From Patescibacteria group bacterium (GTDB lineage: Bacteria; Patescibacteriota; Patescibacteriia; UBA2591; UBA6264): a DNA stretch of 64,000 nucleotides. The stretch is taken from assembly GCA_016784145.1 (NCBI GenBank), contig JADHVF010000002.1:9102-73101 (forward strand), read 5' to 3'. The position numbers were made by a program, and so were the translations under genes. Shown here piece by piece: positions 9,113-48,429 of this stretch (positions are counted from its first letter, which is position 1; the number at the start of each line of letters is the position of its first letter). Below the pieces are notes generated by a model that was not told where the DNA came from, did no database searches, and saw only the letters and a list, made by a program, of their open reading frames with translations.

Positions 9113-9164
9113 GTGTTTTAGTTATAAAAGAGCCCTCTTTTTTGCTTAGGGCCCCTTTTTTTTT

Positions 9165-9383
9165 ACTTAGAGGCCTTGCCCCTAAGTAGAGTCACTTAGA
9201 GGCCTTGCCCCTAAGTAGAGTGCTAATCAGTAATCAGTAATTATTTACTTAGAGGCCTTGCCCCTAAGTAGAGTGCTAATCAGTAATCAGTAATTAATAT
9301 CTACTTAGAGGCCTTACCCCTAAGTAGAGTTACTTAGAGGCCTTGCCCCTAAGTAGAGTGCTAATCAGTAATCAGTAATTAAT
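9165..9383. repeat. Array of 5 copies of the 28-nt GC-rich hairpin element ACTTAGAGGCCTTGCCCCTAAGTAGAGT, three followed by a (CAGTAAT)n spacer
   Basis: The direct repeats are read from the sequence. Each copy is an imperfect inverted repeat (TACTTAGAGG / CCCCTAAGTA). It sits between convergent genes and overlaps the stop of the minus-strand CDS. Confidence 0.85.
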
Positions 9384-13120: not shown

Positions 13121-13151
13121 TTTTGCTGATTATTAATTATTATTTATCAAC

Positions 13152-14709: not shown

Positions 14710-17700
14710 ATGAATTCTCAAATGAAAAAAATATTTTTAATAATATTAGTGATTGTTTTTTGTTTTACTTTGTTTGCACCAAGACAAGTATTGGCCTTAG
14801 GAGATGAATGGGCGACAATAGGGCATTTTTTTTCTAGTGTAGGAGAGTATGTTTGGAAGATTGGTGAAGCATTATGGGAAGAAAGTAAACATCAGTTTAC
14901 GGCGGTTGTGTTTAAGCAAGGATTAAATCTTTATTTAGGCGAGATGGCTAGACAAAGCGCAGAATATGTTGCCACGGGAGGCAAGGGTCAAAAACCAGCC
15001 TTTATAAGCGACCCTACTTATTGGTCTAAGATGGGAGATAATTTATTAGGAACACTTGTTAATGAGGTGGCCCAAGAAGGGTTGGGAGTAAAAAGTTTAT
15101 GCGACCCGATTGACCCTACTATTAGATTTAATATGCTGGTATCGGTTGATACAAAATACAAGGAACAGCAATTTAAGGAAAACGAAATGGACATCTGTCC
15201 ATTAAGTAGAATTAACGAAAGAGTTAAAGAGGCCTCTAGTAAGAAGCTTTTTGAATTTTCAGCAGGTGTAAAAGAAGGAAAACCAAAAAAATTTAAAACC
15301 GATATAAAAGTTGCTATTGTTAATGACACAACCATAAACAAAGCAGATGGGAATTTTGTTTGTGATAAAAGAGGAAAACTTGTCTGGGGAATGTTAAAAT
15401 GTGAATGTAAAGAAAATTGCACTTCATCAAATTGTGATAATACTTGTTTTTCTGTCGATGAGAGGAACAATTTTGGCAGATGGGTAAATGATGGGGCTCA
15501 AGATTTATTAAATATTATTGACAAATTAAGCAATATTCAAGATGAATTTGAAAAAATTATTAATGCTTATGAATGTGCTGTTCAAGACAAGGATGGCAAT
15601 CCAGGTTGGTGCACTAAAAAACTTGAAGAAGTAGAACAAATAAGAAAAGATAAACAAGCAGAAAGAAACGAAAAATGTCCAAACCAAGATGACCCAGAAT
15701 ATTGCGATAAACTACAGGATGAAATAAATAATCTTGTTGAAAAATTTCTTTACATTGATAAATGGTCTAAAAACTATATTAGCATTGACAAATCTTTAAG
15801 AATTAAGAATGTAATAAAAGATTTAAAAAAATTAATTGATGAAACTCCTGATCCTACATCAGGACTAAAAAAAGGAGTTTGGGGACTAAAAAAAGAAAAC
15901 AAGGGATGGGAAATAGATTCATCAAAAGATAATGAGAATTATCTTGGTTGGTGGACAACTTATCCAGCTAAATGTGCTAAAGAAAGTTCAGATGATTTTT
16001 ATGCCTCAGAACATTGTCCTACTCTTTCTGCGTTAGCTTTTGGTAACGATTCAAACGAACATTATCAAGATGTAATTACTTATTCTAAAAGAATGAATAC
16101 TTATGCTAAAAAAATAGCAGATTGGTATGCCACTTTAGAAGACATGATTACAGAGACACACAAGGCGCTTGAAGAAGAAGAAGACCTTCCAGAGACAGAC
16201 CCATTAGACGAGGTTCGTAGAGTTACATCTTCAGAAGGAAGTGATATTGGGGCAACCATTAAAATGAAATCAGATTTTTTTGATAAACAAGCCAAAGCCA
16301 TGGAAGAATCTAAGTTTTTTCAGAACTTGCAAGGCAGGATGAACGATGTTAGTACTAATATTTCTGGAATAACTAAAACACCATCAATATATATTGATGA
16401 ATCAACCAGGACAGCTATTAAAGAAGGTTCGGCCACTTATAAACAATATACTGGAGCAGCTTTGGCAGATGCTTTCAATATTTTTTCTAGCACTTTAATG
16501 AAAAAACTGATGGAAAGAATTTTTGAAGAAGGGTTTAATCCAACTGTTGAAGCAGATAGAACCAAGCCATTTTTAGATAAAGGAGAAGATGAACCACCAG
16601 TTGTTCCAGACCTTGAAGATATTAGAGATGATTTTTCAGATCTAAAATCAGCTCCAATGCGCAAGGGTGGAAAAATGAGCATTTATGACGAATTTGCTGT
16701 TTGTTTGGATGATCCTTCGTATGAATTGCCAACTAATTGTTTGATTGATAGTAATATGATTGAGGCAATTGAAGGCAAAATGACTATTGGGGAGGCCTTG
16801 GATGAAAATTTGCTTAATCCTGGTGCTAGTGTTGGTAGTCCAGGAGATACTAGTAGTTTATTTAGTTATGCTAATCTTAAAAAATTAAGAAGATATAGAA
16901 TTTTTCCTTTAGGCATGGAAATAGCGGCTGAAAAAATATATAATCAAACCATGGGTGACCAGGAATATAAATTAAGATCAATTGTTAATGGATTTAATGT
17001 AGAAAATTCTATTGGCACCTGTTCAACAATTGACTTAAATGGGAGTTTTGAAACAGGGGAAAGTGTGCCAGGTAATTGGTTTTTGAATGATAGTGACGGG
17101 ACAGGAACAAGAGAAAGTGTAGATAATGAATATTATCACGGTTCTTTTTCTTATAAAATAAATTCAACACATACAGCAAATGCTTATTATGGAATCGGCC
17201 ATGAGCCTTATGACATTGAGCCAAACACCCAGTACACTGTTTCGGTAATGGTAAAAGCAGAGGCAATAAATACGGGCAGTTTTAATCTTTCTCTCCATTG
17301 TCACTCTGATTCTGGCGGAAACTTTAATTATACGACTGATGCTGGTGACACAAGCATTTCTTCTGCTAGCTCATCATGGGAACAGCTTTATAGAACTTTT
17401 ACAACTCACAATGATGCAACTGATTGCACCATGCTACTTATATTTAATAATGGTGGCACGGGCACTGTTTATGTTGACCAGGTAAATTTTGTAAAAGGCA
17501 ATAATATTCCTAATGATTACTCATGGGAATCTGCCTCGCCTTTTTGTCATTTAGTTGACCCTGACTGGGTATTAAAGGCCTCTACTTATCAGTGTGATTT
17601 AATGGGCTATTCAGCTATTCCATTAAAAAATAGCAACCAAAGACAAGAAACTTGTGTTGACTTAAAGGATTGCATACACGAAGACCAGGATGGCAATTGT

Positions 17701-20700
17701 GATACTTGGGCATATTGTACTAGAGAGAAAAATGTTTGGCAGTTTAATGGAACTGCTTGTGACAAACAATATGCTTCTTGTGAAACATATGTTCGTTTGT
17801 CAGATAAAAAACAGGCCTTTTATGTTAGCAATACAATAGATTTTGAAACTTGTACGGAAAATGACAATGGTTGTAATTGGTATTGTTCTGTTTGGGACAA
17901 TGATATTGGGTCTGATGGAAAATGGGCTTGCGTAGAGCCAGGTAGTTCATCTTATCCAGATGGCAAGAGTGATTATTCTCAATATGATGATGACAATGCA
18001 ATATTTTTTAATTTAAAAGCAGAAGATTGTAAAATTGAAGAACAGGGTTGTAATGAATACATTAAATTAGGAGAAAATATAAATTTAATTCCAAATAGTG
18101 GGTTTGAACTTGACAAGAATGCTGATGATATTGCTGATGGATGGATAGAAAAGTGGGAAGGAGACGAAGTTCTTACTGAGGATGCAGCTTTTGATGGATT
18201 ATTTGGTTATGAGTTTGTCCATTCTAATGGAGATGATATGGGGGATTATACAGGAGCATGGCAAAGAGTTTCTGTATTACCAGGGCAAAAATATACTATT
18301 TCTGCTAAAATAAAAATAATCACTCCTGTCACGGGGACTGGTTCGACTGCCACTGTTAATTATTATTGGGATGAAGACGGAGACAATTATGACATTGGCA
18401 ATAAAGGAGAGACAATAATTATACTTGATTACCTTGATGAATGGCAAGAACATTCTCAAACAGTAGTTGCTCCTGATAACATGAATTATGTCTGGATTGC
18501 TCCTATTATGTATGGCAATGGCAAGGTTTATTTTGACAATATTCAACTAGAATATGGAGCATTGTCTTCGGCTTATAAAGAGTATGGTTCAGGAGTTAAG
18601 GAGTATTTTAAGACAATTCCCAAGCAAAGACAATGGGTAGAAGATGGTAATGGCAATTGGGATTGGGAATGGAAAACATGCAGTGTTTATGATGAGGCAG
18701 ATAATTTGGATTGTGATGGCTATGCCCAGCAATGCGATGCCAAAGATATTGGTTGCGAGATTTACACTAATATAAGTAATAATGTTTCTTTCTCGGCCGT
18801 AAAAAGAGGAGAAGATGAATGTGCTCCTGAGTGTGTTGGGTATGAAACATTTAGGCAAATACCAACCAATTTTGATATTAATGTTGATTGGAAAAGCTTT
18901 ATCCCATCAACGGCCCAGGGATGTTATGTGCCAGGGTGTGAAGAGTTTACTAATTTAGATACACTGAATCAGGGCGGAGAAGGGACGGAATATTATTCTT
19001 ATTTAAGACAATGTGTAAAAACAGATGAACAAGCAAGGGCAATTATTGATAGTAATTCAGACGAGATAATGCCACCAGATTCTGATACTTGCGGGTATTT
19101 TTATACTTGGATTGGGTCTGAAACAAGTGGCTTTCAGTTAAAAAAATATTATCTAAAAATTGACACTGACAATGGTCCGGAAAAAGTTTCAACCTCTCCT
19201 CCAAGTTCTTGGGGAAATTGTTGGAACGAAGACCATGCAGCCACTAATCCTTATTGCAAGCAGTTTTATAATGAGGCAGGGCAAATTTATTATAGATTAT
19301 ATAAAAATACCATTACTTGTTCGGAAGAATGTTATCCATTCAGACGAAGTATTAATCAAGCCATTTACATGGCTATGCCGTCACAAGGAGAAATGTGTAG
19401 TTCTCAAAACAATGGTTGCAAGGAATACAAAGGGCCTTTAGCAGGTGATATTAATTCTGTTTTTTCAGATGATTTTACAGCTGGTACGGGGCAATGGACT
19501 ACTGGTGACCTTTCTTCAGAAACAGATAATTTTTCCGGTTATTCTTTAAAAAATAATGGAGCCGGAGAACTAAAGCGTTCAGTGGCTGGCTTGACTCAAA
19601 AAGATAAAATTTATTTTGTATCTTTTTGGATTAAAACAGCATCAAGTGATCCCATAGAGGTTTATTTTACTTCAACTGATAGAATAGAGCAAAATATTAG
19701 TTTAGTTAATGAGTGGCAGAATATGAGGTTTGGGCCATTCTATTTTTCAACTACTCCATCTAATGATGAAAAACTTAATATTTTCGCAACTAGTGATTTT
19801 TATATTGACAATGTTATTTTAGAGCAAATCGATGATAATATTTATTTGATAAATGATTCATGGTCAACTCAGGGTTCTTGTGATATTGATTATCAGGGAA
19901 ATTATAGCCAGGGATATATGATTGGTTGTGCTAAATATGTTGATACTAATAATGATGAGCATTATTTCAAACAATTTAGTAAAATGTGCCCTGAACAAGC
20001 AGTTGGTTGTGCGGGTTATATTAATACTCAAAATTATTCATATCCATTTGAATGGCAATTTAATCAAGCAGGAGCAGATAATGATGAAATAACAATTTTA
20101 GCAGACAAGACAGAGTATTATGTTGTTGAAAAAGAAAACTATTGTCATGAAAACAATAAAGGGTGTGAAAGATTAGGCCTGCCAGAAATCGAAGATGATG
20201 GGTCTATTAGTATGTGGTCAGATGTTTTTATTAAAAATAATCCTGATAACTATAAATCCAAGAGCATGGTTTTATGTGATGTTGACGGGGTTGGGTGTGA
20301 AGCATATTCTGATAATTATTATTTCAAAGACCCAATCAAGCAAGCAAAACTATGTGAATACAAAACCAAAACAATTAATGGAAATAATCAATCAGGCTGG
20401 TTTAAAAAAGACACAGACCAAGCTTGTTATTACGAAAATACGGGACCATACATAATAGATGACCTTACTTATGGCATTTATTTTCCAGGTCAAGAAAATT
20501 ATGATAATTATGTTGGTATTTGTCCAAAGAAACAAGTTGGGTGTACTGAATTTGTTGACCCTGGTTGGGGTGGCGGAACAAAGAATTTAATAAATAATAG
20601 TGACTTTGCTAACGAAGATGTTGGATATGATGACGATAATCATCCAGATGGTTGGTTTGATAGTTTTAATAATAATCCAAGTTGGCAAGTTGAAGTTGTT

Positions 20701-23700
20701 GATCAAGTATCAACTGGTATTTGTGGGGTTGGTAGTAATGAAAACAATGTTTGTTATTCTAACACAGCTTGCGAATCTTGGACTTGTGATCTTTTTGGAA
20801 CAGAGTGCTTTGGTACTGGGCCTTGCGAAGGTAGTAATTCATATTGCAGTCATGATAATAGTTTTTGTACTGATGATAGTGGCTGTAATACAACTACATC
20901 CACGGGAACTTGTACAAATGTCCTTGTTTGTGGAGGCAATGCTTCTTTTGAATGTAGCACTGGGGCAGATTGTTCTTCAGGTGATAATAGTTGTAATATA
21001 CCAAGTGATACTCCAACAGAGTGGGCATGTGAATATGATAACAGTGCTTGTGACCCAAACAACAATCAATGCCCTACTGTTAATGATAGTTGTTATTATG
21101 ATGATTGTTATTATACAGGTACAGCTTGTAATAGTAATTCTGATTGTGATGGTAATATTTCTCAGTCATGTGATGCTTCTACATTTGTCGCAACAGGTCA
21201 TTGTAAATTTGCCGTAGAGGAAAGTTGTATTTCAGACGATGATTGTGTTGGGAAGGGTTCTCAAGAATGTGTTTTTGGAACTTGTTCACAGGGTTATAAT
21301 AATTGTTATAACGATTCAGATAATTTTAGTTTTGTGCAATCATGTACCGGAGGAACAACTGGTTGTTATGGGGGAGATGCTTGTACATGTCCTGTTAATA
21401 GTGTTTGTATTCGAGATTTTGGCTCTTGTGATCCTTTTGGAACAGATACTTGTGCTACAGATGTACCATGTCAGAGAGTTGGCACTTGTAATACAAATTC
21501 AAACATAGAATGTTTTGAAGGCGGAGATAATAGATGTACTTATGATTACGGGAATGTTTGCGGGTTTGATGTTTGTATTTTAAATGGAGAATATAATGGC
21601 TATTGTGACACTTCATCACCATCACCTTGTGAATCCACTACTAATAATTTTTGTGATGCCCAGACGGGCACTTGTACTCAAGTACAAGATTCTTCTTGTA
21701 ATTTTTCACATTCTGACAGCGTTTCAGTTGAATTGCCTTCGGGAATGATAAATGCATATCATGTTTATACTAATAGTCCTGTTTCTACTGAAGCCGGCTT
21801 CATAGGAGATATTGGTAGTCCGACTGGAGGAGAGTTTTCTTATAATGGTCCGGCCTTTTATAGTATTTATGCTTTTGTTAGGAAAGGCACGGTGAAGTTC
21901 GGTGATTTATCAAAACCAGACGAAGAAATAGTTTCCATAGATAGTACTGAAAGCAATGACCAATGGATTAAAAAAAGTGTTTTTGTGAGTTATCCGTCTT
22001 CTACACGCGTTTATTTTGAACCAGATGTAAATAATGAGGTAGATGCTTACGTCACTGGCTTGGTTTTGTCTCCTTCTTCTTTTGCAGAATATTATTACAT
22101 TGATAATAATAAATTAGATAAAGCTACTTCTGTTTCATTAAAAAAAGGAAATATTCTCTTACAAAATTCAAGCGATATAAATATGGATGGGGAAATTAAT
22201 TCATACTATAATTCTTTTGCAACTTATCAGAAGTCGTCAGAACAAACTCCTCCAGGAGCTTTGGTTGATGCGATTAGTTGTTCGCCAGAGCCAGTAATTG
22301 ATTGTGAAGAAGAAATTAATCAGTCAACAGATTATTGCAAATATTGTTTGCCAAACAATCAGCTTGGAAATGATACCAATCTAATTTTAAAAGTTGATAG
22401 GGATAGAATTTGTGGAGAGTGGCTTACTTGTATTAGCTCTAATCAAGAATGGGATGCTAATTTAGGGGCATATAGGGATGTTTGTCAGTTCATGGGAAGA
22501 TGCAATCAATTGATAAGCTCGGGAGAGGCAACAGAATGTGTCAGATTTGTAGAGCCAGAGGAAGTTGTTTTAACAGAGGATGTTTATAAAAATAGGGATA
22601 TTTCTTTCTCGGGCATGGATTATTCAGGACATTCATTACATAATGTTTATCCCTTGGAAAAATTATTTCTCACGGGAACAGACACAGATGGTTATGAACT
22701 AACCCACAAAGACAAAGATGGTATAGAAGATGGTATAGATGGCAATGATTCAACTTTAGATAAAACATGCAGATTATTTCCTGAAAAGGACTCTCCTTTC
22801 AAAAATTGGGAAAAAGAGGACAAAAATGTCTTATATCAAGGAGTGAATTCATGTAACGATAATTCAAGTTCGGGAGATTATTCTGATTGTCAGTGTTCAT
22901 ATTTAAAAGTTAAATATGGTGGCATGAATCTTTATTATAATTACGCTGATTCAACTTTTGGCACTGCACCTTCAAAGGCCTGTATTAGCGGGAACAACAA
23001 GGGGGGAACATGCGCTAGTGATACTGATTGTGACAGCATTGCAGGGTCTTGTGTTAATAGAGGAGAGGGTCAAAAAGTGGTTGGATTAAGAGATTATTGT
23101 ATTGAATTAGATGATACAAAGGAAGGTGCTGGAGATTTAGGGGCTTGTGTTACTTGGTGGCCTGGTGCTGGCATGGGTGACCCAGATGTTTTCAATCAGG
23201 TTTCTTCAGCCGGATATGAAGGAGAGACAGAATATTTTTGCATAGATGCTTCTGACAGATGGGAATATAGAGGCGAGATTTATGAAGAAACACGTTATGA
23301 AGATGGGTATGGTTGTGCTAATAATCCTAGACCTTCCTCTTCAAATTGTGACAGTAATTACACTCTTAGTGAAACAAAGGGAGAGAATTGGGATGATGAC
23401 CAGTGGTGTGGTTGGCAAGGATCGCATAGTCAGTTTTGGAGATATGTGCATTGTACTAGGAATGGCAATGGTGATTCTGGTTGGTTTTCAGATAATAATG
23501 GTTCTGCTATAACATATCCTGTTCTTGATTATGGATCCACCCCTGTTCCTGAAGAAGTTGTAGAACATAGGTGTAACAAGATTATTGCTATCCCTGCTGG
23601 GAATGATGCTAAAGCTTTTACAAATGTTATTTATAATGAGTCAGCAGTGGGTGGTATTAATCATGGAGATGGTTGTGAGTTTTATGGCAACTTAGGATCC

Positions 23701-24453
23701 CTTGCCCTTGATTCACAAATAATTCTACCACATGCTGATTGGGCTGGAAATGATTGTAATATAAATATTTCTTACACAATTCCAGGAACATTGCTCGCTA
23801 GATATCCTATCACTTTGGCTGGCACAATTATTCATAATGGCACCAGTATTTTAAAGCAATTATTTGCTGTGTCAGGAAATGAATATCATTGGAATGGAAG
23901 TGCTTATATTGAACAAGCTGGTACATCATGGGATAATACAGAGACGGCAACAAATACAATCAATGCTCCCAAGGTTGCTTCCATGTCAGAAATAGAGGGA
24001 GAAATTACCATTGGTGATTCTAGTGATGCTGATGTTGCACGCACGGCAGCTTATCCGGCTACATTAAAGTTTTATGCTTGGGCCAATGAAAACCAAATGC
24101 CAGTCAGGGAAATCGAAATTGACTGGCTAGGCACAGGGTCTGAGATGGGGATTGAACAACATAATGTAACAGCTAAAAATCATAAAATTACTTGCGATAA
24201 TACTAATTTCGGAGATTCATCAGATGGGTGTATTGACGAACCATATGTATTTAACCGTATTTATACTTGTGTTGGTTCTGGTAGTTTGGGGTGGAATTCT
24301 AGTTTTTGCGGGGGGCTGACTAATGCTTGTTGTTTCAAACCAAGGGTAAGGATAAAAGATAATTGGGGCTGGTGTACAAATGGAGTTTTTGATTGTTCAG
24401 ACACACAAGGGTGGGTTGATTATAACGGAAAAATAGTAATATACGCTCAGTAA
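14710..24453 (+). CDS. Giant (3247 aa) secreted Cys-rich surface protein with at least 3-4 CBM4_9-like carbohydrate-binding jelly-roll modules
   Basis: It is a single uninterrupted 9.7-kb ORF with an N-terminal signal peptide (KKIFLIILVIVFCFTLFAPRQVLA). CBM4_9-like segments lie around aa 770-930, 1130-1290 and 1590-1740 (…GNWF…YTVSVMVKA…VYVDQVNFVKG; IPNSGFELD…KYTISAKIKI…VYFDNIQLEY; …FYIDNVILEQ). A dense Cys-rich repeat region spans roughly aa 2000-2350. Confidence 0.7.
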   Translation: MNSQMKKIFLIILVIVFCFTLFAPRQVLALGDEWATIGHFFSSVGEYVWKIGEALWEESKHQFTAVVFKQGLNLYLGEMARQSAEYVATGGKGQKPAFISDPTYWSKMGDNLLGTLVNEVAQEGLGVKSLCDPIDPTIRFNMLVSVDTKYKEQQFKENEMDICPLSRINERVKEASSKKLFEFSAGVKEGKPKKFKTDIKVAIVNDTTINKADGNFVCDKRGKLVWGMLKCECKENCTSSNCDNTCFSVDERNNFGRWVNDGAQDLLNIIDKLSNIQDEFEKIINAYECAVQDKDGNPGWCTKKLEEVEQIRKDKQAERNEKCPNQDDPEYCDKLQDEINNLVEKFLYIDKWSKNYISIDKSLRIKNVIKDLKKLIDETPDPTSGLKKGVWGLKKENKGWEIDSSKDNENYLGWWTTYPAKCAKESSDDFYASEHCPTLSALAFGNDSNEHYQDVITYSKRMNTYAKKIADWYATLEDMITETHKALEEEEDLPETDPLDEVRRVTSSEGSDIGATIKMKSDFFDKQAKAMEESKFFQNLQGRMNDVSTNISGITKTPSIYIDESTRTAIKEGSATYKQYTGAALADAFNIFSSTLMKKLMERIFEEGFNPTVEADRTKPFLDKGEDEPPVVPDLEDIRDDFSDLKSAPMRKGGKMSIYDEFAVCLDDPSYELPTNCLIDSNMIEAIEGKMTIGEALDENLLNPGASVGSPGDTSSLFSYANLKKLRRYRIFPLGMEIAAEKIYNQTMGDQEYKLRSIVNGFNVENSIGTCSTIDLNGSFETGESVPGNWFLNDSDGTGTRESVDNEYYHGSFSYKINSTHTANAYYGIGHEPYDIEPNTQYTVSVMVKAEAINTGSFNLSLHCHSDSGGNFNYTTDAGDTSISSASSSWEQLYRTFTTHNDATDCTMLLIFNNGGTGTVYVDQVNFVKGNNIPNDYSWESASPFCHLVDPDWVLKASTYQCDLMGYSAIPLKNSNQRQETCVDLKDCIHEDQDGNCDTWAYCTREKNVWQFNGTACDKQYASCETYVRLSDKKQAFYVSNTIDFETCTENDNGCNWYCSVWDNDIGSDGKWACVEPGSSSYPDGKSDYSQYDDDNAIFFNLKAEDCKIEEQGCNEYIKLGENINLIPNSGFELDKNADDIADGWIEKWEGDEVLTEDAAFDGLFGYEFVHSNGDDMGDYTGAWQRVSVLPGQKYTISAKIKIITPVTGTGSTATVNYYWDEDGDNYDIGNKGETIIILDYLDEWQEHSQTVVAPDNMNYVWIAPIMYGNGKVYFDNIQLEYGALSSAYKEYGSGVKEYFKTIPKQRQWVEDGNGNWDWEWKTCSVYDEADNLDCDGYAQQCDAKDIGCEIYTNISNNVSFSAVKRGEDECAPECVGYETFRQIPTNFDINVDWKSFIPSTAQGCYVPGCEEFTNLDTLNQGGEGTEYYSYLRQCVKTDEQARAIIDSNSDEIMPPDSDTCGYFYTWIGSETSGFQLKKYYLKIDTDNGPEKVSTSPPSSWGNCWNEDHAATNPYCKQFYNEAGQIYYRLYKNTITCSEECYPFRRSINQAIYMAMPSQGEMCSSQNNGCKEYKGPLAGDINSVFSDDFTAGTGQWTTGDLSSETDNFSGYSLKNNGAGELKRSVAGLTQKDKIYFVSFWIKTASSDPIEVYFTSTDRIEQNISLVNEWQNMRFGPFYFSTTPSNDEKLNIFATSDFYIDNVILEQIDDNIYLINDSWSTQGSCDIDYQGNYSQGYMIGCAKYVDTNNDEHYFKQFSKMCPEQAVGCAGYINTQNYSYPFEWQFNQAGADNDEITILADKTEYYVVEKENYCHENNKGCERLGLPEIEDDGSISMWSDVFIKNNPDNYKSKSMVLCDVDGVGCEAYSDNYYFKDPIKQAKLCEYKTKTINGNNQSGWFKKDTDQACYYENTGPYIIDDLTYGIYFPGQENYDNYVGICPKKQVGCTEFVDPGWGGGTKNLINNSDFANEDVGYDDDNHPDGWFDSFNNNPSWQVEVVDQVSTGICGVGSNENNVCYSNTACESWTCDLFGTECFGTGPCEGSNSYCSHDNSFCTDDSGCNTTTSTGTCTNVLVCGGNASFECSTGADCSSGDNSCNIPSDTPTEWACEYDNSACDPNNNQCPTVNDSCYYDDCYYTGTACNSNSDCDGNISQSCDASTFVATGHCKFAVEESCISDDDCVGKGSQECVFGTCSQGYNNCYNDSDNFSFVQSCTGGTTGCYGGDACTCPVNSVCIRDFGSCDPFGTDTCATDVPCQRVGTCNTNSNIECFEGGDNRCTYDYGNVCGFDVCILNGEYNGYCDTSSPSPCESTTNNFCDAQTGTCTQVQDSSCNFSHSDSVSVELPSGMINAYHVYTNSPVSTEAGFIGDIGSPTGGEFSYNGPAFYSIYAFVRKGTVKFGDLSKPDEEIVSIDSTESNDQWIKKSVFVSYPSSTRVYFEPDVNNEVDAYVTGLVLSPSSFAEYYYIDNNKLDKATSVSLKKGNILLQNSSDINMDGEINSYYNSFATYQKSSEQTPPGALVDAISCSPEPVIDCEEEINQSTDYCKYCLPNNQLGNDTNLILKVDRDRICGEWLTCISSNQEWDANLGAYRDVCQFMGRCNQLISSGEATECVRFVEPEEVVLTEDVYKNRDISFSGMDYSGHSLHNVYPLEKLFLTGTDTDGYELTHKDKDGIEDGIDGNDSTLDKTCRLFPEKDSPFKNWEKEDKNVLYQGVNSCNDNSSSGDYSDCQCSYLKVKYGGMNLYYNYADSTFGTAPSKACISGNNKGGTCASDTDCDSIAGSCVNRGEGQKVVGLRDYCIELDDTKEGAGDLGACVTWWPGAGMGDPDVFNQVSSAGYEGETEYFCIDASDRWEYRGEIYEETRYEDGYGCANNPRPSSSNCDSNYTLSETKGENWDDDQWCGWQGSHSQFWRYVHCTRNGNGDSGWFSDNNGSAITYPVLDYGSTPVPEEVVEHRCNKIIAIPAGNDAKAFTNVIYNESAVGGINHGDGCEFYGNLGSLALDSQIILPHADWAGNDCNINISYTIPGTLLARYPITLAGTIIHNGTSILKQLFAVSGNEYHWNGSAYIEQAGTSWDNTETATNTINAPKVASMSEIEGEITIGDSSDADVARTAAYPATLKFYAWANENQMPVREIEIDWLGTGSEMGIEQHNVTAKNHKITCDNTNFGDSSDGCIDEPYVFNRIYTCVGSGSLGWNSSFCGGLTNACCFKPRVRIKDNWGWCTNGVFDCSDTQGWVDYNGKIVIYAQ

Positions 24454-24536
24454 ACAAGGGCAGGCCCCTTTTAAATGGGTCTGACCTTTTAGCATAATTC
24501 AAACCATTTTTAGTTAATTGTATTTGTGTTTATTTA

Positions 24537-27500
24537 ATGTTAAATAGATTAAAAAAAATTAATTTTTCTCTTAAAAAATTAATACCAATAAACAGCATTG
24601 GTGTGAAAAGATTTTTATTATTATTTGTTTTTGTTGGTATTGCTATTTTTGTTCCTAAAATAGTATTTGCTTTTAGTATTATAGATAGCATAATTGCTCC
24701 TCCCTTAATGGCTTTGATTAATTTTTTGGGAAGATTAACTTCGTTTTTTATTTGGCTCTTAGTTCAAGTGGCTCAGTATAATGATTTTATAAATTCACCA
24801 GCCGTATCAAAAGGGTGGATTTTAATGAGAGACATATTTAATATGTTTTTTGTTATTATCTTGTTAGTAATTGCTTTTGCGACGGTTCTTAAAATAGAAA
24901 CATATTCATACAAGCGATTAATGCCAGTATTTATTGTTTCAGCTGTTTTGATTAATTTTTCCAAGTTGATTTGCGGAGTGATAATTGATATTTCTCAGGT
25001 TTTAATGCTTACATTTATATCTGCTATTCAGTCAGCTGCTACAGCTGATTTTGTTGAAATTTTTGGGTTGACTAAAATGTTGGAATTAAGAGATAACATA
25101 GAATCAGGGGTGGTTATTTCGGGAGGAGAAATGTTTGGGGCTTTGCTTTTAGGACTTGTTATGGTTTTGGTTGCTCTTGGAGTTATAATGACAATGACAC
25201 TTTTGTTAGTAGCCAGGATTGTTATGATTTGGTTTTATGTCCTGCTTTCGCCAATGGCTTTTATGGCAACTATTTTACCGGGGACAAAAAGCTATGCTAG
25301 TCAATGGTGGACTGATTTTATAAAACAAGTAATCATTGGCCCTGTTTTGGCTTTTTTTCTATGGATATCTTTTTCAGTTGTCTCGACAGGGGGGTCTTCT
25401 GGAATGATTGATTCATCTAGCGGGAATTCAGCTACCATAGGCGTAACCGGAGAGCCGAGTTTTATATTTAACTTTTTAATTGGCATTGCGATGTTGATCG
25501 GCTCTTTAATGATGGCTCAAAAAATGGGAGTAGCTGGTGGAAAAATGGTTGGGGGAGCAGTTAGCAAAATGAAAGGCATGGCCATTGGCAAAGCAAAAGG
25601 AGTAGCCAAGAGAGCAGCCAAGAGAGTAGGAGCCCCTTTAAAGAAAGTTGGCAAGGGCTTGGCAGGAGCAGCAGTTAAAGCACCTCTTAGGGGATTAAAG
25701 GCTGGAGTAAAATTTGGGGGCAAAAAATTACAAAAAACAGGAAAAGTCGGAGAATGGGTTGGTAAGGGAATTGAAAAGACAGCAACTCCGATTGAATCAA
25801 TTAGACAACTAAAAGGTAGTGCAGTTCAAGGATTGCAAAAAAGAAAACAAAGTCGTTTAGAAAGACTTAGAAAAGGGAAAGGAACGATAATGGATAAAGC
25901 AGCCCAGGCATTAAGTGAAGAATATGATAAATCAGGAGGGAGAGACACAACAATTAACCAGGAAATTAGGAGGGATAAACTTGAAAAAAGACAAAAACAA
26001 GCTCAATCAAAACATGATGATGATGTAATTGTAGGAGCAGAAAACGACGAAGCATATGCTCTTGTGGCAGCAGAAAGAGGATTATTAAAAACAACCAAAG
26101 TTGAAAAATTACCGACTAAAGACAATAAAAGATTGGAAGAATTAAAACAAGGTGATGCCACAGACACTTTAACCACAGAGGAGCAAGAAGAGTTTGAAGA
26201 ATTAACAACCAAGAATGAGGATTTAAAGAAAAAAGCTAAAACAACAACCAAGAACAATGAACGAGTTGAGCGCACGGTGGCTAATGCTAGAAACAAATTT
26301 GCATCAGATTCTATTATAGGGAAGTCCTTTGATGACCATTTAAAAAAGAAAGGTGATGCTAATTTAGCTTATAATACATTTTATAAAGATAATCCAGGGC
26401 AGTTAACTAAAGATATTAAATCAGGAGATTTTGGGGTAGCCCAATTAATGAAATTAGATAAAGATACAACAAAGGACCTTGGTTCAAGTGATGTGGGGCA
26501 GAATATTTTATCTGAAATAAAAACAGAGGATTTTAATAAATTTGCTAAATCTACGGACATAAAAGTTCAGGATAAATTTGAAGCACTTTTTGGAGACATA
26601 AAGCCGGAAAAAATTAAAGAAAAAGATAAACAAAAACTGATTGATGCTGGTAGGGCTGATTTAGCTTTTGTGGATGACCCAGAAACAGAAGAACAAAAAA
26701 GTAATAACAAAAACATGGTTAAAAAATTGGAAATGGAAGAGAATAGAGATGTTTTACTTAAACAGTCAGACATGGCTTTAAAGAATGATGTGGTGGCTGA
26801 GTTGGTCGTAAAGACAGCAAATCTAGAAGATATTCAAAAAATGTCACCGAAAAGAAAGGAAAATCTTTTGGAAGAAAAAATGCCTGCTATAATGAAGAAT
26901 TATCAAAAAAAGGAAAGCGATCAAGGATTAGAAGACCCTGAAAAAGAAGATTATAAGAAGATTCAAACAACTTATATTAAAGCCAAGAAAGGAAAAGATA
27001 TTAGCAAGGTCTTTGAAGACAAGGATGGCAAGTTTGATGAAAGCAAGTGTGCTAATCTTTCTAAATGGATAAAAAATGGTACAATTAAATCAGGTGATTT
27101 GGGAGATTTAGATATTGATAGGGAAAATATTAATGAAAAGCAAAAAGATGAAGTATTGAGTCAAATATCTCAAGGAATGACAGCTAGCGATGTTATGAAA
27201 TTATATGGTAAAAATCAAGGATTGGCACAAAAATTAACCAATAAAATTCAAGCACAAGCTTCAACAGGAGATAAAGAAGCACTAGAAAAGATAGAAGTTC
27301 TCTCCAACTCAGAATTTTTTCAAAGACAAATATCTACAACAACTAAACAAAAAACAAAAGAAACAAAAATACAGGGCAAGAAAGTAGATAAATCAAGTGT
27401 CCGAAAGATTGAAACAATAACTACTCAAGAAATTGAAGAAAGAAAAGAAATGATAACCAAAAAATATAATAACCTTGAAGAACCAGTAGATGCTATAATG

Positions 27501-28127
27501 ATAGTAGAAGACCATACTAAACAAGGTGGCGAATTAGCGAAAACAATTAGTTCTGCTTCTTTAGAATCATTTAAAAATTTACAAGCATCAAAGAATGCAG
27601 GGAAAGAAATGATTGCTAAAATGGACAAAAATGAATTAAATGAGTTTGCTCAGGAGCTAATCAAGCATAAAGGCGGACAAGAAAAACTGGCAAAGATTTT
27701 TAATTTAAGAGATATGTTCCCTGTCGGCCAAGACTTGTCTGAAAAAGGAAAGATGACAGTTAATAACAAAGAATATGATTTATCTAATTCAAGGGAAAGA
27801 GAAGAGGTTAATCAACTCAATGCTCAAAAAGCAGTTGATGTTATAAAACAAGCACCAACCATTGCTGTTAATTTAGCAGGAGTAGAAGGCGCAAAAGGAT
27901 TAACAGATTTGCAAGGAGTGAGCAAAGAAATAGCAGAAGCGATAATACAAGCCATTGCCAACCAAGCAAACAAAGGGGATGACCAAGCTCAACAACTCAT
28001 TCCCAACCTTAAAAATACTGCATGGATAAAAGAAATTTTAGAAAAACAAAAGAAAGAAGCAGGACCACTAGAAGAAGGGCAATCAGAGACAGAAGGGACA
28101 ACAGAAGGGACAACAGAAACAGAATAA
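24537..28127 (+). CDS. VirB6/TrbL-like polytopic membrane protein with an ~850-aa K/E/D-rich low-complexity tail
   Basis: The N-terminal ~330 aa contain about 6-7 hydrophobic helices with TrbL/VirB6-like organisation. Next comes a Gly/Lys-rich linker (GKAKGVAKRAAKRVGAPLKK). The tail is long, charged and probably coiled/disordered. It lies in the same operon as the VirB4 ATPase. Confidence 0.5.
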   Translation: MLNRLKKINFSLKKLIPINSIGVKRFLLLFVFVGIAIFVPKIVFAFSIIDSIIAPPLMALINFLGRLTSFFIWLLVQVAQYNDFINSPAVSKGWILMRDIFNMFFVIILLVIAFATVLKIETYSYKRLMPVFIVSAVLINFSKLICGVIIDISQVLMLTFISAIQSAATADFVEIFGLTKMLELRDNIESGVVISGGEMFGALLLGLVMVLVALGVIMTMTLLLVARIVMIWFYVLLSPMAFMATILPGTKSYASQWWTDFIKQVIIGPVLAFFLWISFSVVSTGGSSGMIDSSSGNSATIGVTGEPSFIFNFLIGIAMLIGSLMMAQKMGVAGGKMVGGAVSKMKGMAIGKAKGVAKRAAKRVGAPLKKVGKGLAGAAVKAPLRGLKAGVKFGGKKLQKTGKVGEWVGKGIEKTATPIESIRQLKGSAVQGLQKRKQSRLERLRKGKGTIMDKAAQALSEEYDKSGGRDTTINQEIRRDKLEKRQKQAQSKHDDDVIVGAENDEAYALVAAERGLLKTTKVEKLPTKDNKRLEELKQGDATDTLTTEEQEEFEELTTKNEDLKKKAKTTTKNNERVERTVANARNKFASDSIIGKSFDDHLKKKGDANLAYNTFYKDNPGQLTKDIKSGDFGVAQLMKLDKDTTKDLGSSDVGQNILSEIKTEDFNKFAKSTDIKVQDKFEALFGDIKPEKIKEKDKQKLIDAGRADLAFVDDPETEEQKSNNKNMVKKLEMEENRDVLLKQSDMALKNDVVAELVVKTANLEDIQKMSPKRKENLLEEKMPAIMKNYQKKESDQGLEDPEKEDYKKIQTTYIKAKKGKDISKVFEDKDGKFDESKCANLSKWIKNGTIKSGDLGDLDIDRENINEKQKDEVLSQISQGMTASDVMKLYGKNQGLAQKLTNKIQAQASTGDKEALEKIEVLSNSEFFQRQISTTTKQKTKETKIQGKKVDKSSVRKIETITTQEIEERKEMITKKYNNLEEPVDAIMIVEDHTKQGGELAKTISSASLESFKNLQASKNAGKEMIAKMDKNELNEFAQELIKHKGGQEKLAKIFNLRDMFPVGQDLSEKGKMTVNNKEYDLSNSREREEVNQLNAQKAVDVIKQAPTIAVNLAGVEGAKGLTDLQGVSKEIAEAIIQAIANQANKGDDQAQQLIPNLKNTAWIKEILEKQKKEAGPLEEGQSETEGTTEGTTETE

Positions 28128-28168: not shown

Positions 28169-29455
28169 ATGGAATTTAAGGATTTACCAGATTGGGTAAA
28201 AGACAATTTATTAAGTGACCAAACATTGGCAGTTAATAAAAAGATTATAAAAGACTTTGAATTAACAAATGAACAAAAGTCAATTGTTTTTGATGCCTTG
28301 CGAAAAATTATATTAAAACAATCAAATATAGATGAATTAACAGTCGTTTTGCAGGGAATGGGAGTTGGCATAGATAAAGCAAACAAACTTATTATAGAAG
28401 TTATTAAGCAAAGATTACTGCCTTTAAAAGAATATTTATTAATTGATTTTCGTCCATCTATTACTAAATTAGGGGGAAAGATTCTTAAAGAACAATCAAG
28501 CCAGTTTGTGCCAGATAAAGAAATTTCTTTAGAAAAAACAGCTCAACAGATTATAGATGAACTTAAAATATCTTTTGAAAGAGATGTTATGGCAACTAGG
28601 TTTAGTAATATTGTTGTTTCATTTTTAAAAGAAGTGAGAAGCGAGATTGAAACAAAAATTGTTTTAAAAAGAGACCCAAAGATAGGAGGAATGGGGATTG
28701 AGGACGAGATGGTTGATAAAATAATACAGGCCTTGAAAAAGAAGCATCAATCTCCTAAAATAATCAAAAATACAAAGGTTAAAGATTTGACAGAAGAATT
28801 AAAATTAGCTCAAGAACCAATTGATATTCCTGGCTCAATTCCAAAACCTCAGCCAAAACCTGACTTAGGGGCAAGGCCTCTAAGTAAAGACATGAGTCAA
28901 GAAAAGCAAGTATTAACACCAAAACCTTATCCTGTTTCTCAACCAAAACCTGACTTAGGGGCAAGGCCTCTAAGTAAAGACATGAGTCAAGAAAAGCAAG
29001 TATTAACACCAAAACCTTATCCTGTTTCTCAGCCAAAACCTGACTTAGGGGCAAGGCCTCTAAGTAAACCGTTAGTACATCAAACACCAAGGCCGGTTAA
29101 GGATTTGTCTGGGCCAGTTGAAATTAGGTCAAGAACATTGAGTCCTATTGATGAATTAAGAACATTTTCTTTGGTTGATTGGCGACGATTAGGGAAAACA
29201 GCTGATGCTGTTACCAGAATCAAAGACAAAATAAATTTGTTAGAAGAAGAATCATTGCTAAAAAAGGCAGAAGGAATTAAGGCATGGAAAGAATCAACCA
29301 TTAACAAATTATATTTAAAAATAGGGGAGCAAGCGATTAATTCAGGGTCATCAATTAGGGATGTTATTTTAAGCAGGCAAAGCAATAAAGAACAAACCTT
29401 AACAGAAGAAGAGTTTAATGCTGTGGTTGAATTAAATCAATCTTTGAGATTTTAA
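28169..29455 (+). CDS. Hypothetical protein with a 3x tandem 30-aa repeat (PKPDLGARPLSKDMSQEKQVLTPKPYPVSQ)
   Basis: 428-aa ORF in the co-directional cluster. The internal 90-nt tandem repeat embeds the GC-hairpin element (see repeat 28851-29070). Confidence 0.5.
   Translation: MEFKDLPDWVKDNLLSDQTLAVNKKIIKDFELTNEQKSIVFDALRKIILKQSNIDELTVVLQGMGVGIDKANKLIIEVIKQRLLPLKEYLLIDFRPSITKLGGKILKEQSSQFVPDKEISLEKTAQQIIDELKISFERDVMATRFSNIVVSFLKEVRSEIETKIVLKRDPKIGGMGIEDEMVDKIIQALKKKHQSPKIIKNTKVKDLTEELKLAQEPIDIPGSIPKPQPKPDLGARPLSKDMSQEKQVLTPKPYPVSQPKPDLGARPLSKDMSQEKQVLTPKPYPVSQPKPDLGARPLSKPLVHQTPRPVKDLSGPVEIRSRTLSPIDELRTFSLVDWRRLGKTADAVTRIKDKINLLEEESLLKKAEGIKAWKESTINKLYLKIGEQAINSGSSIRDVILSRQSNKEQTLTEEEFNAVVELNQSLRF
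28851..29070. repeat. 2.4 copies of a 90-nt in-frame tandem repeat, each containing ACTTAGGGGCAAGGCCTCTAAGT (reverse complement of the intergenic hairpin element at 9165-9383)
   Basis: Exact 23-nt match read from the sequence at 28864, 28954 and 29044. The period is 90 nt, a multiple of 3. Confidence 0.85.
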
Positions 29456-36313: not shown

Positions 36314-38383
36314 TTATTCTAAGTGGGTTGACATAATACTTGCTTGAATTTTTTTCTTGATCAAGGGATATTTTTCAAGGCGAGGACTTTGATAAAATAG
36401 TTGTTTTGCTATTTTTTTTGTTAGGGCTATTATTTTTACATCTGTTAGTTTGGCTATTTTTAAACTGGTAATAAATCCAGATTGTTGTGTACCAAATATT
36501 TCTCCGGGTCCACGAATTTCTAAATCTTTTTCAGCTAATTCAAATCCGTTGTTTGTAGATATTAGAGCATTTAATCTTTCAGTTGCGGTTATGGAATCTG
36601 TGTCTAGCATTAAAAAACAATATGACTGGTCTTCTCCTCTTCCAACTCTTCCCCTAAGTTGATGTAATTGAGCTAATCCAAATCGTTCAGCTCCATGAAT
36701 TAACATTATTGATGCGTTTTTAATATCAATGCCAACTTCAATAACAGTTGTTGAGACAAGTATATCAATCTGCTTGGCTAAAAAATCTTTAATAATTTTT
36801 TCTTTAGTAGTAGATTTTAATTTGCCGTGAAGTGCTTTGATTTTAAGGTTTGGAAATATGTTAGTTGTTAAATTGATATATTCTTGCTTAACAGACATTG
36901 CTCCCAATTTATCAGATTCATCTATTAACGGGCAAATTACAAATGCTTGTTTTTGTTTAGTAATTTCTTCTTTTATAAATTCATAAGTTTTTTTGTATTC
37001 AATTGGTTTAATTATTTTGGTGATAATTTTTTTTCTTCCTTTAGGCATTTCATCTATAATTGAAATGTCTAAGTCGCCATATAGTGTCAGGGCCACAGAC
37101 CTTGGTATTGGAGTAGCAGTCATTGAAAGAAAGTGAGGAGATACTGTTTGTTCTAATAGATGTTGACGTTGGCTTGTGCCAAATCTATGCTGTTCATCGA
37201 TGATTACTAATCCTAATTTTTTAAATTTTATAATTGGTTGAATCAAGGCATGTGTGCCAATAATTAGGTCAATGTCTAATTGGGCTAATTTTTTAATTAA
37301 TTCTATTTTAGTTATTTTCTTTTTAAAATTTGTTTTTATACTATTGCTGGTTAATAATGCTATTTTAAAAGAAAAATTTTTAAACAAATTTGAAAATGTA
37401 TTAAAGTGTTGCTCAGCTAGTATTTCAGTTGGAGCCATATAACATGTTTGTTGACTGTTTAGTATGACATTTAAGATAGCCAATCCAGCCACGACTGTTT
37501 TTCCGCTACCAACATCTCCCTCTAACAATCTATTCATTGGATTATCTTTTCCCATGTCATTGATAATCTCCCACGCAGATCTTTTTTGAGCATTTGTAAG
37601 TTTAAAAGGCAGTTCTTTTACGAATTTTTTTGTTTTAGCAAGATAAAATTTTATTTTATGTGCTTGTTTATGCTTGATATTTTGGCGTATTAAATGATTT
37701 TTGGCTTGAATTATAAATAGCTCATCAAATTTTAATCTCTTAATTGCCTTGGTCATTATTTTTTTATCGCTAGGAAAATGTATTTGTTCTAATGCAAAAG
37801 AAAGGTCAATTAAATTATTAGTAGCTCTAATATCTCTATGTAACCAGTCATTTATTTTTTGAATAACAGGAATTGTTTGTTTTATTAAAAATCTTATTTG
37901 TTTTTGAGTGATATTTGATGTTAGGGGATAGATTGGAACCAGCCTGCCAGTATGAATAGGGTTTTTGTTATCCAAAGGGGTTTCATAAGAGGGATTTATT
38001 AATTGAAACCCATGTGTTTTGTTTTTAATAATTTTTCCAGCAAAATAAACAGTTTGACCTTTGGTGAATTTTTTAGTTAGGTATGGTTGATTAAACCAGA
38101 TAATTTTAAGAGAATCAGTTTTATCAGACACCAAGGCCTCAGTAATTGACATTTTTCTATTAAAAGAAGAATGAGTGCTAATTGACTTGATAATTGCCTT
38201 GATTGTGCCTGTTTTTTTTGCTTTAATCTTGTCTATTGTAAGGACTTCGCTATAATCATCATAGCGAAAAGGGTAGTGGAATATTAAATCATCTATTGTT
38301 AATAAGTTTATCTTGGATAATTTTTTAGAGATTGCACTGCCAACACTGGTCAATTTATTAATTGGAGTTTTCAATTCAATCAT
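36314..38383 (-). CDS. recG: ATP-dependent DNA helicase RecG
   Basis: An N-terminal wedge/OB region is followed by a SF2 helicase core with GDVGSGKTVVAG (motif I), DEQHRFG (motif II) and QLRGRVGRG (motif VI). 689 aa. Confidence 0.9.
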   Translation of the reverse strand: MIELKTPINKLTSVGSAISKKLSKINLLTIDDLIFHYPFRYDDYSEVLTIDKIKAKKTGTIKAIIKSISTHSSFNRKMSITEALVSDKTDSLKIIWFNQPYLTKKFTKGQTVYFAGKIIKNKTHGFQLINPSYETPLDNKNPIHTGRLVPIYPLTSNITQKQIRFLIKQTIPVIQKINDWLHRDIRATNNLIDLSFALEQIHFPSDKKIMTKAIKRLKFDELFIIQAKNHLIRQNIKHKQAHKIKFYLAKTKKFVKELPFKLTNAQKRSAWEIINDMGKDNPMNRLLEGDVGSGKTVVAGLAILNVILNSQQTCYMAPTEILAEQHFNTFSNLFKNFSFKIALLTSNSIKTNFKKKITKIELIKKLAQLDIDLIIGTHALIQPIIKFKKLGLVIIDEQHRFGTSQRQHLLEQTVSPHFLSMTATPIPRSVALTLYGDLDISIIDEMPKGRKKIITKIIKPIEYKKTYEFIKEEITKQKQAFVICPLIDESDKLGAMSVKQEYINLTTNIFPNLKIKALHGKLKSTTKEKIIKDFLAKQIDILVSTTVIEVGIDIKNASIMLIHGAERFGLAQLHQLRGRVGRGEDQSYCFLMLDTDSITATERLNALISTNNGFELAEKDLEIRGPGEIFGTQQSGFITSLKIAKLTDVKIIALTKKIAKQLFYQSPRLEKYPLIKKKIQASIMSTHLE

Positions 38384-38532: not shown

Positions 38533-38822
38533 AAAAAGTGTGCAATATCGGATGTCGCACACTTCAAATAGTTACTTGGTTACTTACTTAGGGGCCTTGC
38601 CCCTAAGTAAAGTAGAAATCAATAATCAGTAATCAATAATCAACTACCTCACTGAGGGTTTTACTTAGGGGCCTTGCCCCTAAGTAAAGTAGAAATCAAT
38701 AATCAGTAATCAATAATCAACTACCTCACTGAGGGTTTTACTTAGAGGCCTTGCCCCTAAGTAGAAAATAAGCACATAAAAGTGTGCAATATCGGATGTC
38801 GCACATATGTCGCACATATTGA
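38533..38822. repeat. Composite repeat: 27-nt direct repeats (AAAGTGTGCAATATCGGATGTCGCACA) flanking a 77-nt tandem array (2 full copies plus a partial third). Each unit has a perfect 9-bp-stem hairpin CTTAGGGGC-CTT-GCCCCTAAG plus (AATCART)n
   Basis: Read directly. Hairpin copies start at 38586, 38663 and 38740. The flanking direct repeats are at 38536-38562 and 38780-38806. Confidence 0.85.
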
Positions 38823-39721: not shown

Positions 39722-40246
39722 ATGATTTTTTTATCAATTTTATTTATAATAATATTTTTTTTCTTTTTATTTGTTTTTTCTAGTTATTCTTGGGCGTTCT
39801 TTAGTGCAGCGCCTTTTGTTTTTTCGTTCAGGGGAGAGGTTGATAGAATGTTAAAAATTGCCAAAATTAAACCAGGAGAAAAGTTTTATGACTTAGGAAG
39901 TGGAGACGGCAGAATGGTGTTAGCAGCTGGCCAACAAGGAGCAGATAGTGTTGGTTTTGAAATTTCTTTTTTCCCATTTATATTATCAAAAATTAAATGT
40001 TGGAAATATTCTAAAAATTGTAAAATTTTTTATAAAAATTTTTGGAAAGCAAATTTAAAGGATGCTGATATTATTTATTTTTATCTTTTGCCAAAATCTT
40101 CTTCAAAATTAAGACATAAATTTGTAAAAGAACTAAACACGGGCACAAGAATAATATCAAATGCATTTCCAATCAAGGAATGGGAGCCAACTAGGGTTTT
40201 TAAGAAACAAGGACATCCTCCTCTATATCTTTATCAAATAGATTGA
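39722..40246 (+). CDS. Membrane-anchored class I SAM-dependent methyltransferase-like protein
   Basis: An N-terminal hydrophobic segment is followed by DLGSGDGRMVLAAG, a GxGxG SAM-binding motif I. Confidence 0.45.
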   Translation: MIFLSILFIIIFFFFLFVFSSYSWAFFSAAPFVFSFRGEVDRMLKIAKIKPGEKFYDLGSGDGRMVLAAGQQGADSVGFEISFFPFILSKIKCWKYSKNCKIFYKNFWKANLKDADIIYFYLLPKSSSKLRHKFVKELNTGTRIISNAFPIKEWEPTRVFKKQGHPPLYLYQID

Positions 40247-45077: not shown

Positions 45078-45095
45078 TTTTTTTAATTAAATAAT

Positions 45096-45165
45096 TATTG
45101 ATTACTGATTATTGATTAATGATTACTGATTAGTGATTATTGATTACTGATTAACTATTAGTTAA
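45096..45165. repeat. Heptamer microsatellite (TGATTAN)x9
   Basis: TGATTAC TGATTAT TGATTAA TGATTAC TGATTAG TGATTAT TGATTAC TGATTAA … read directly. It is immediately 3' of the tmRNA gene. Confidence 0.85.
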
Positions 45166-48280: not shown

Positions 48281-48429
48281 GTTGATTGATTATTGATTAT
48301 TAATTATTGATTATTAATTATTGATTATTAATTATTGATTACTGATTATTAATTATTGATTACTGATTATTGATTACTGATTATTGATTACTGATTATTA
48401 ATTATTGATTACTGATTATTGATTACTGA
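48281..48429. repeat. ~21-unit heptamer microsatellite (TGATTAT / TAATTAT / TGATTAC) filling the entire rpsL-rpsG intergenic spacer
   Basis: Read directly. 149 bp made almost entirely of T[GA]ATTA[TC] units. Confidence 0.9.

Follow-up and report, generated by a model that had tools for sequence, protein, structure and literature searches.

How does one and the same palindrome come to lie between genes at two sites of a bacterial chromosome and to be translated, several times over, inside a conserved gene at a third? The question is raised by a stretch of 64,000 nucleotides of a Patescibacteria genome (hereafter the window), which is otherwise ordinary chromosome, with genes for aminoacyl-tRNA synthetases, ribosomal proteins, EF-G, tmRNA/SmpB, RecG and MreB. 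The original prediction had left two answers open: either a mobile palindromic element was domesticated into a protein repeat, or a single nucleic-acid signal is being maintained regardless of coding context.

Two features of the gene content are mentioned in passing. At 4148-7212, adjacent GH57-family paralogues contain identical segments of 16 to 25 nt (for example, 5138-5162 is identical to 6211-6235), which points to one gene having been duplicated in tandem, perhaps with later gene conversion. An unusual find for a bacterium is a 174-aa protein, encoded at 39722-40246, that matches the eukaryote-type DOT1 family of histone methyltransferases (PF08123, E 2.5e-7).

One palindrome at three loci

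The 23-mer ACTTAGGGGCAAGGCCTCTAAGT is found without mismatch on the plus strand at 28863-28885, 28953-28975 and 29043-29065, and on the minus strand at 9165, 9194, 9247, 9332 and 38740. Minus-strand copies with one mismatch lie at 9303, 38586 and 38663, the last two being perfect palindromes. The window thus holds 11 matches at up to three mismatches, compared with 0.00 expected from 100 dinucleotide shuffles. All 11 are nearly identical, and eight are extragenic. The original prediction had described the 23-mer as the exact reverse complement of the repeat in the array starting at 9165, and this is borne out by four exact copies and a fifth with one mismatch; the palindrome was also correctly described as intergenic at two loci (the arrays at 9165-9354 and 38586-38762) and coding at a third. 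Only two variants exist among the copies, C10T (at 9303) and T17C (at 38586 and 38663), the latter making the palindrome perfect, and the pattern of the family with its variant positions is ACTTAGGGG[CT]AAGGCC[CT]CTAAGT.

The 23-mer is a short, imperfect, hairpin-forming palindrome within the range of about 20 to 40 nt that is typical of REPs. Its stem has 10 bp, with a single G.U/A.C position, and its loop has 3 nt. As RNA, the GGGGCAAGGCC strand has a folding energy of -13.0 kcal/mol with one G.U pair, a value equalled by none of 200 shuffles; on the opposite strand the G.U pair becomes an A.C mismatch and the energy is -9.1 kcal/mol. As DNA, the 23-mer reaches -6.4 kcal/mol, and the perfect 27-mer TTACTTAGGGGCAAGGCCCCTAAGTAA folds with -18.3 kcal/mol. 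The GC content, put at 80% for a 21-mer in the original prediction, had to be revised: it is 52% for the 23-mer and 77% for the 13-nt core GGGGCAAGGCCTC, compared with 26 to 37% along the window. The window contains no other family of GC-rich perfect hairpins with a stem of at least 9 bp.

The larger of the two intergenic arrays (9161-9385, minus strand) contains five hairpins, at 9165, 9194, 9247, 9303 and 9332, and sits between two convergent genes, encoding a PHP-domain protein (8243-9112, plus strand) and a LysM/CHAP protein (9379-10602, minus strand). Successive hairpins are spaced by 29, 53, 56 and 29 nt, and what separates them is either 6 nt or an AT-rich heptad module (GCTAATCAGTAATCAGTAATTA...). 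The neighbours separated by 6 nt (9165/9194 and 9303/9332) have the same orientation. Just ahead of the first hairpin, at 9140-9161, GCTTAGGGCCCC followed by T10 looks like what is left of a palindrome copy after decay or truncation; the PHP-domain gene may have its actual terminator here.

The second array (38584-38766, minus strand) consists of three hairpins in 77-nt units (spacings of 77 and 77 nt), each unit being made of a hairpin, the heptad module and a small palindrome, CCTCACTGAGG. Two of its three hairpins are perfect palindromes with a 12-bp stem, TTACTTAGGGGCCTTGCCCCTAAGTAA. It is flanked by two divergently oriented genes, recG (36314-38383, minus strand) and a tRNA-Ser gene (38899, plus strand), and it is bracketed by an exact direct repeat of 28 nt, AAAAGTGTGCAATATCGGATGTCGCACA, with its left copy at 38534-38561 and its right copy at 38778-38805, both on the plus strand. 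The 28-nt repeat forms a small hairpin itself and is absent elsewhere in the window; it could be a duplication junction or the footprint of an insertion. BLAST of this array against phage and plasmid collections returned no match, and a search of the window with Rfam at the gathering threshold returned only tRNAs and the tmRNA, with no match in either array.

What do the coding and intergenic copies have in common? When all 11 copies were aligned with their flanks, identity stopped at the end of the palindrome, plus AA(A) on its 3' side, so that for some pairs the exact match between a coding and an intergenic copy extends to 26 nt (the 23-mer and AAA). In the intergenic arrays, A(G/A)AGT comes after the hairpin and AT-rich heptads (AATCAGT/AATCAAT) come next; these heptads are the non-hairpin module of each array. 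As this module is shared by the two intergenic arrays and is absent from the copy in the CDS, the palindrome alone is common to all three loci. The intergenic structures are thus mosaics in which short modules are combined, much like REP/BIME clusters.

The heptads (ATTGATT/ATTACTG) are also found in other spacers of the window, where hairpins are absent. They fill whole intergenic regions at 48285-48434 and 45094-45153, and form short runs at 13126, 41242 and 60415; the spacers filled in this way include that between rpsL and rpsG (about 21 units) and the gap between the tmRNA gene and infC. They place stop codons in all frames.

Several known types of repeat were considered for the arrays and set aside. 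An intrinsic terminator requires a T/U tract directly after a GC-rich stem-loop; only the 9303 copy passes the scan (tail TATTAATT), and after the other copies comes AA(A) or a different module. A CRISPR array would have identical repeats at regular intervals, unique spacers and cas genes; here the spacings are irregular, the 'spacers' are repeats too, and the search for cas domains was negative. TIGR-Tas arrays are characterized by two variable spacers of 8 to 12 nt, box C/D motifs and a nearby Tas protein with a Nop domain (PMC12045711); here the segments between hairpins are repeated, not variable, and no Nop domain is encoded by the neighbouring genes. An uptake signal (USS/DUS) would be a short motif present singly about once per kb, also within coding DNA, with an inverted pair now and then; this does not fit either, as no 10-mer of the repeat is present outside the three loci, except for a chance occurrence of AAGGCCTCTA at 17575. 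Regarding a replication origin, the cumulative GC skew has no origin-type reversal at the arrays, and its sole fall (at about 44 to 48 kb) matches a run of genes on the minus strand. Finally, the intergenic arrays are not former coding sequence, since their copies are in different frames with stop codons between them.

The coding repeat and its host gene

The three plus-strand copies belong to a tandem repeat of 90 nt, or 30 codons (28848-29068; 2.45 copies, 98% matches according to TRF), within the 428-aa ORF at 28169-29455 on the plus strand. Each unit begins with CTCAGCCAAAACCTG, continues with the hairpin and next AAA, and encodes QPKP-DLGARPLSK-DMSQEKQVLTPKPYPVS; the frame of the ORF reads ...QPKPDLGARPLSKDMSQEKQVLTPKPYPVS..., the first hairpin copy (28863-28885) being read as (D)LGARPLS. 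Exact matches, TRF and translation agree with the original prediction of three copies with a 90-nt period, each encoding DLGARPLSK. That the element 'recurs three times in frame' is nevertheless an overstatement: the copies exist, but a duplication of 90 nt keeps the frame, being exactly 30 codons long, and the palindrome, read directly from its sequence, is open in four of its six frames. The 27-nt perfect palindrome would itself occupy nine codons, and agrees with the CDS at 25 of 27 positions. Tandem units differ among themselves by a single substitution. On sequence grounds, a single sequence gave rise to the three coding copies through recent tandem duplication, and their origins are not independent. 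A -1 frameshift at CCAAAAC, which precedes the hairpin, would be speculative, given that the spacer is just 3 nt and that the -1 frame stops immediately.

Its homologues and their conserved terminal domains show that the ORF is a genuine CDS, encoding a conserved Patescibacteria protein. Among the 81 homologues, all those with a named source come from Patescibacteria/CPR metagenomes; with the frame thus conserved and the matches exact, the two doubts attached to the original prediction, a frame lacking in relatives and a mismatched repeat, do not apply. In the homologue alignment, the N-terminal and C-terminal domains are conserved (the C-terminus ends with ...EFNAVVELNQ.LRF), and the spacer between them is rich in K, E and P and differs in length and sequence in every homologue. 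AlphaFold2, run on this alignment, gives confident helical domains at residues 1-193 and 323-428, and a disordered linker at residues 194-322 (pLDDT below 50), which is the part holding the repeats. Searches of the PDB by sequence and by fold returned no significant relative of the protein.

The gene is located directly upstream of genes for PrgI-like, TraC-like and VirB4/TraG-like ATPase proteins, and downstream of genes for a 3247-aa and a 1196-aa protein, and this cluster is conserved. The two large proteins are encoded at 14710-28127; the longer has a weak CBM_4_9 match and the shorter has no Pfam match. Four T4SS_pilin genes precede the window by a few kb (L069, 14541-16426). Together, the genes for the large, PrgI-, TraC- and VirB4-like proteins and for the pilins look like a CPR secretion or pilus cluster. 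Just before the gene, the 3' end of the 1196-aa gene carries 2.5 tandem copies of a 12-nt unit, ACAGAAGGGACA (28089-28118).

Relatives and sister assemblies

The loci of 47 relatives of the gene were fetched from GTDB genomes, with up to 10 kb on each side. As the original prediction had asked, the ORF proved to be conserved in relatives without the repeat: at these 47 loci, no GC-rich hairpin within the homologue recurs in the flanks, no comparable hairpin is present, and the shared 15-mers are AT-rich chance matches. DLGARPLSK was not found in the aligned homologues. Three homologues (L025, L029 and L055) do have internal repeats, defined as 15-mers recurring anywhere within the homologue ORF, which are unrelated to the present one and occur independently. 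In the 656 kb of sequence from the 47 relatives, about 17 perfect GC-rich hairpins with a stem of at least 9 bp were counted, none of which belongs to a recurrent family. In one distant homologue (L057, 11015-11035), a different GC-rich perfect hairpin, CGGCTTGCCGCCGGCAAGCCG, occurs in the region coding for the conserved C-terminal domain.

Closer to the window, no further copy of the hairpin exists in the 10 kb beyond each end, so that the repeat occupies three loci in about 84 kb (window and flanks) and is coding in one gene only. No transposase, of the RAYT/IS200-like or any other type, was found among the roughly 30 window ORFs scanned and in the precomputed Pfam annotation of the 10-kb flanks, which leaves the mobilizing enzyme without a candidate.

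Comparison with assemblies of near-identical strains indicates that the arrays are prone to change. A sister assembly from another sample (L001) differs from the window at one of 20,851 bases outside the arrays, with no indels. Its length differs in two places: it lacks 90 nt of the coding array and has 53 nt more in the array upstream of recG, where it has four hairpins compared with three in the window. It thus encodes the same protein with exactly one 90-nt unit fewer (P0002, 398 aa). At the 9.2-kb array, another assembly (L018) has seven hairpins instead of five, and in several others the contigs end inside the array. These numbers come from short-read assemblies at 6-9x coverage, and the differences could partly be artefacts of collapse or expansion. 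The coding and the non-coding arrays both appear to be unstable spots of this genome.

Origin of the coding copies

We consider it reasonably likely that a lineage-specific, REP-like palindrome was captured once in a tolerant linker, and was then amplified by unequal recombination or slippage. The usual habitat of the palindrome, of 23 nt and up to 27 nt, would be intergenic, where it is clustered with the AT-rich heptad module in mosaic arrays. One copy would have entered 28169-29455 in an open frame, inside the Pro/Lys-rich disordered linker, and the insertion would have been tolerated because this linker is disordered and unconstrained. The inserted copy would have persisted as a passenger encoding (D)LGARPLS(K), a small, flexible and hydrophilic peptide. 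The 90-nt unit would then have expanded to two and three copies through unequal recombination or replication slippage between units, a process that the hairpin or cruciform probably favoured, and the same instability may shift the copy number of the intergenic arrays. Excising the palindrome in silico leaves ...CCA AAA CCA CCG..., which would encode PKPP, a plausible linker; the site before insertion, reconstructed as ...CCAAAACC|A CCG..., would have been 27 nt shorter. As there is no close relative (43 to 92% identity) in which an empty site could be seen, we infer the insertion event and its direction, from intergenic DNA into the CDS. The mode of entry and the absence of a function at the protein level are likewise what we infer.

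Of the two answers first proposed, the mobile element is therefore retained in part: a shared palindrome lying in frame in a gene is the best reading, but 'domesticated' is unsupported. The coding element looks like a tolerated passenger, unlike a conserved functional feature, judging from the hypervariable disordered linker, the absence of the element at the 47 loci and a recent amplification whose copy number varies between assemblies. For the same reasons (a variable linker, absence at 47 loci, recent amplification), a signal maintained regardless of coding context is unsupported. Exact identity of all copies could nevertheless also reflect selection on a signal, and this alternative was weighed more closely. 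The palindrome would then be selected in both contexts as a stabilizer of RNA 3' ends, as a processing or pause stem-loop, or as a DNA palindrome bound by a protein. Consistent with this, all 11 copies are nearly identical, and both T17C (G.U to G-C) and C10T (C-G to U.G) keep the pairing on the GGGGCAAGGCC strand. The RNA fold is better by 4 kcal/mol on this strand, which is sense for the CDS, for the 3' region of the LysM/CHAP gene and for recG. However, the strand argument relies on two variants only (p roughly 0.25-0.5), the hairpin is absent from the gene's 47 relatives, 10 of the 11 copies lack a T-tract, and the 38.6-kb array is placed between the best divergent promoter-like sites, so that it may not be transcribed. 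Recent spread explains the identity of the copies equally well, and we regard a selected signal as unlikely. It seems quite improbable, too, that the hairpin is an active cis-element, namely the recognition site of a hairpin-specific recombinase or of a nucleic-acid-binding protein of the episymbiont. If it were, a hairpin in a secretion-cluster gene would drive, for example, programmed variation of linker length or co-translational pausing between domains, and one nucleic-acid signal would act alike in coding and non-coding contexts.

Alternatively, the 90-nt unit could be kept as a contingency locus, providing a hypervariable linker length that is useful to an episymbiont in a secretion- or pilus-associated protein. 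Two units compared with three in assemblies otherwise 99.995% identical, the position of the gene in a PrgI/TraC/VirB4-like cluster beside giant surface-type proteins, and the wide variation of linker length in the family are all expected in this case. Yet a change of one unit keeps the frame and alters a disordered spacer by 30 aa, hence there is no on/off switch; the intergenic arrays vary in the same way, which ties the instability to the repeat rather than to the gene; and short-read collapse may account for part of the variation. We therefore doubt that such a function is at work. The reverse direction, with the repeat originating as coding sequence and the intergenic arrays being decayed or copied fragments of it, would agree with the CDS copy being the majority variant of the intergenic copies. 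It appears very improbable, given that only 23-26 nt of the 90-nt coding unit are present in the intergenic arrays, that the intergenic loci share an additional module, that perfect-palindrome variants exist only between genes, and that the intergenic copies are mutually out of frame (29-, 53-, 56- and 77-nt spacings). Least credible of all is an assembly artefact, by which a repeat-induced chimera would have put an intergenic repeat into the gene. The MAG contigs have a coverage of 6-9x and several of them break at the 9.2-kb array; however, the window and two other assemblies, ERZ24794648 and ERZ24794654, come from three different samples and agree on the placement, the frame is open, and the sequences on the two sides of the repeat encode the N-domain and the C-domain of a single conserved protein, ordered as in all homologues.

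If capture followed by amplification is the correct explanation, to which known repeats is the palindrome closest? Rickettsia palindromic elements (RPEs) provide a documented case of in-frame fusion into ORFs (PMC10969869, section 4.2). As with RPEs, the present family is found both between genes and in frame in a gene, where it adds a peptide without destroying the protein. However, RPEs are about 100 to 150 bp long with a conserved peptide, whereas the segment shared here by coding and non-coding copies is 23-27 nt; RPEs are found in dozens of unrelated genes, whereas a single gene in about 84 kb is concerned here, its copies being multiplied by tandem duplication; and the Rickettsia lineage is unrelated to Patescibacteria. 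A REP is an imperfect palindrome of short length, with a core like GGGGGCTTGCCCCC in P. fluorescens (PMC3337134). The present repeat resembles REPs, REPINs and BIMEs by its G-rich/C-rich core (GGGGCCTTGCCCC, compared with GGGGGCTTGCCCCC in P. fluorescens), and by being mostly extragenic, clustered, mixed with short motifs and variable between close strains. It differs in that adjacent copies are direct, whereas REPINs are inverted doublets, in that no gene for RAYT, the IS200-like HUH tyrosine transposase whose gene is flanked by REPs, is within reach, in that the copy number is low so far, whereas REPs are numerous in a genome, and in that one locus is coding, whereas REPs are extragenic by definition. 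Since size, inverted doublets, RAYT gene and copy number do not all match, the repeat is likened to RPEs and REPs, and not classed as a member of either.

MITEs (ERIC, BOX, QMITE and the Anabaena MITEs) sometimes sit in frame inside ORFs (PMC10969869), and the palindrome shares with them that it is a small non-autonomous repeat occasionally found in such a position. But it has no terminal inverted repeats apart from the hairpin, its size is well below the MITE range (50-500 bp), the coding copies have no target-site duplication, and the 28-nt repeat around the 38.6-kb array is not a typical one. As a 30-codon unit of a disordered, Pro/Lys-rich spacer, with a copy number varying between near-identical strains, the coding array also resembles VNTR linkers; unlike in ordinary coding VNTRs, its unit carries a sequence common to intergenic arrays.

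A full-text search of the literature found no description of REP-like repeats in Patescibacteria. Few palindromic repeat families extend into coding sequence, and the present case would add one from Patescibacteria (CPR). It would also illustrate how repeat DNA is taken up, and later multiplied, by disordered linkers of otherwise conserved proteins. At the three hairpin loci, moreover, short-read assemblies of these genomes break or become confused. In practice, the loci may serve as a VNTR-like marker for strain typing and as a pointer toward a possible hairpin-specific transposase elsewhere in the genome, without opening a new mechanism.

Beyond the window and its relatives, a scan for the hairpin gave no match in GTDB representative genomes or in viral contigs, and 12 matches in metagenome contigs (L003-L014), which are unrelated contigs of 49-60% GC. 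These probably reflect the convergence of GC-rich stems in a different element. All 12 carry an identical 21-nt perfect hairpin, CTTAGGGG[CT]AAGGCCCCTAAG, within longer and different conserved intergenic repeats that are followed by T-runs. In one of these contigs (L007), the 21-nt hairpin flanks a BacA gene on both sides, at 14-34 and 1286-1306.
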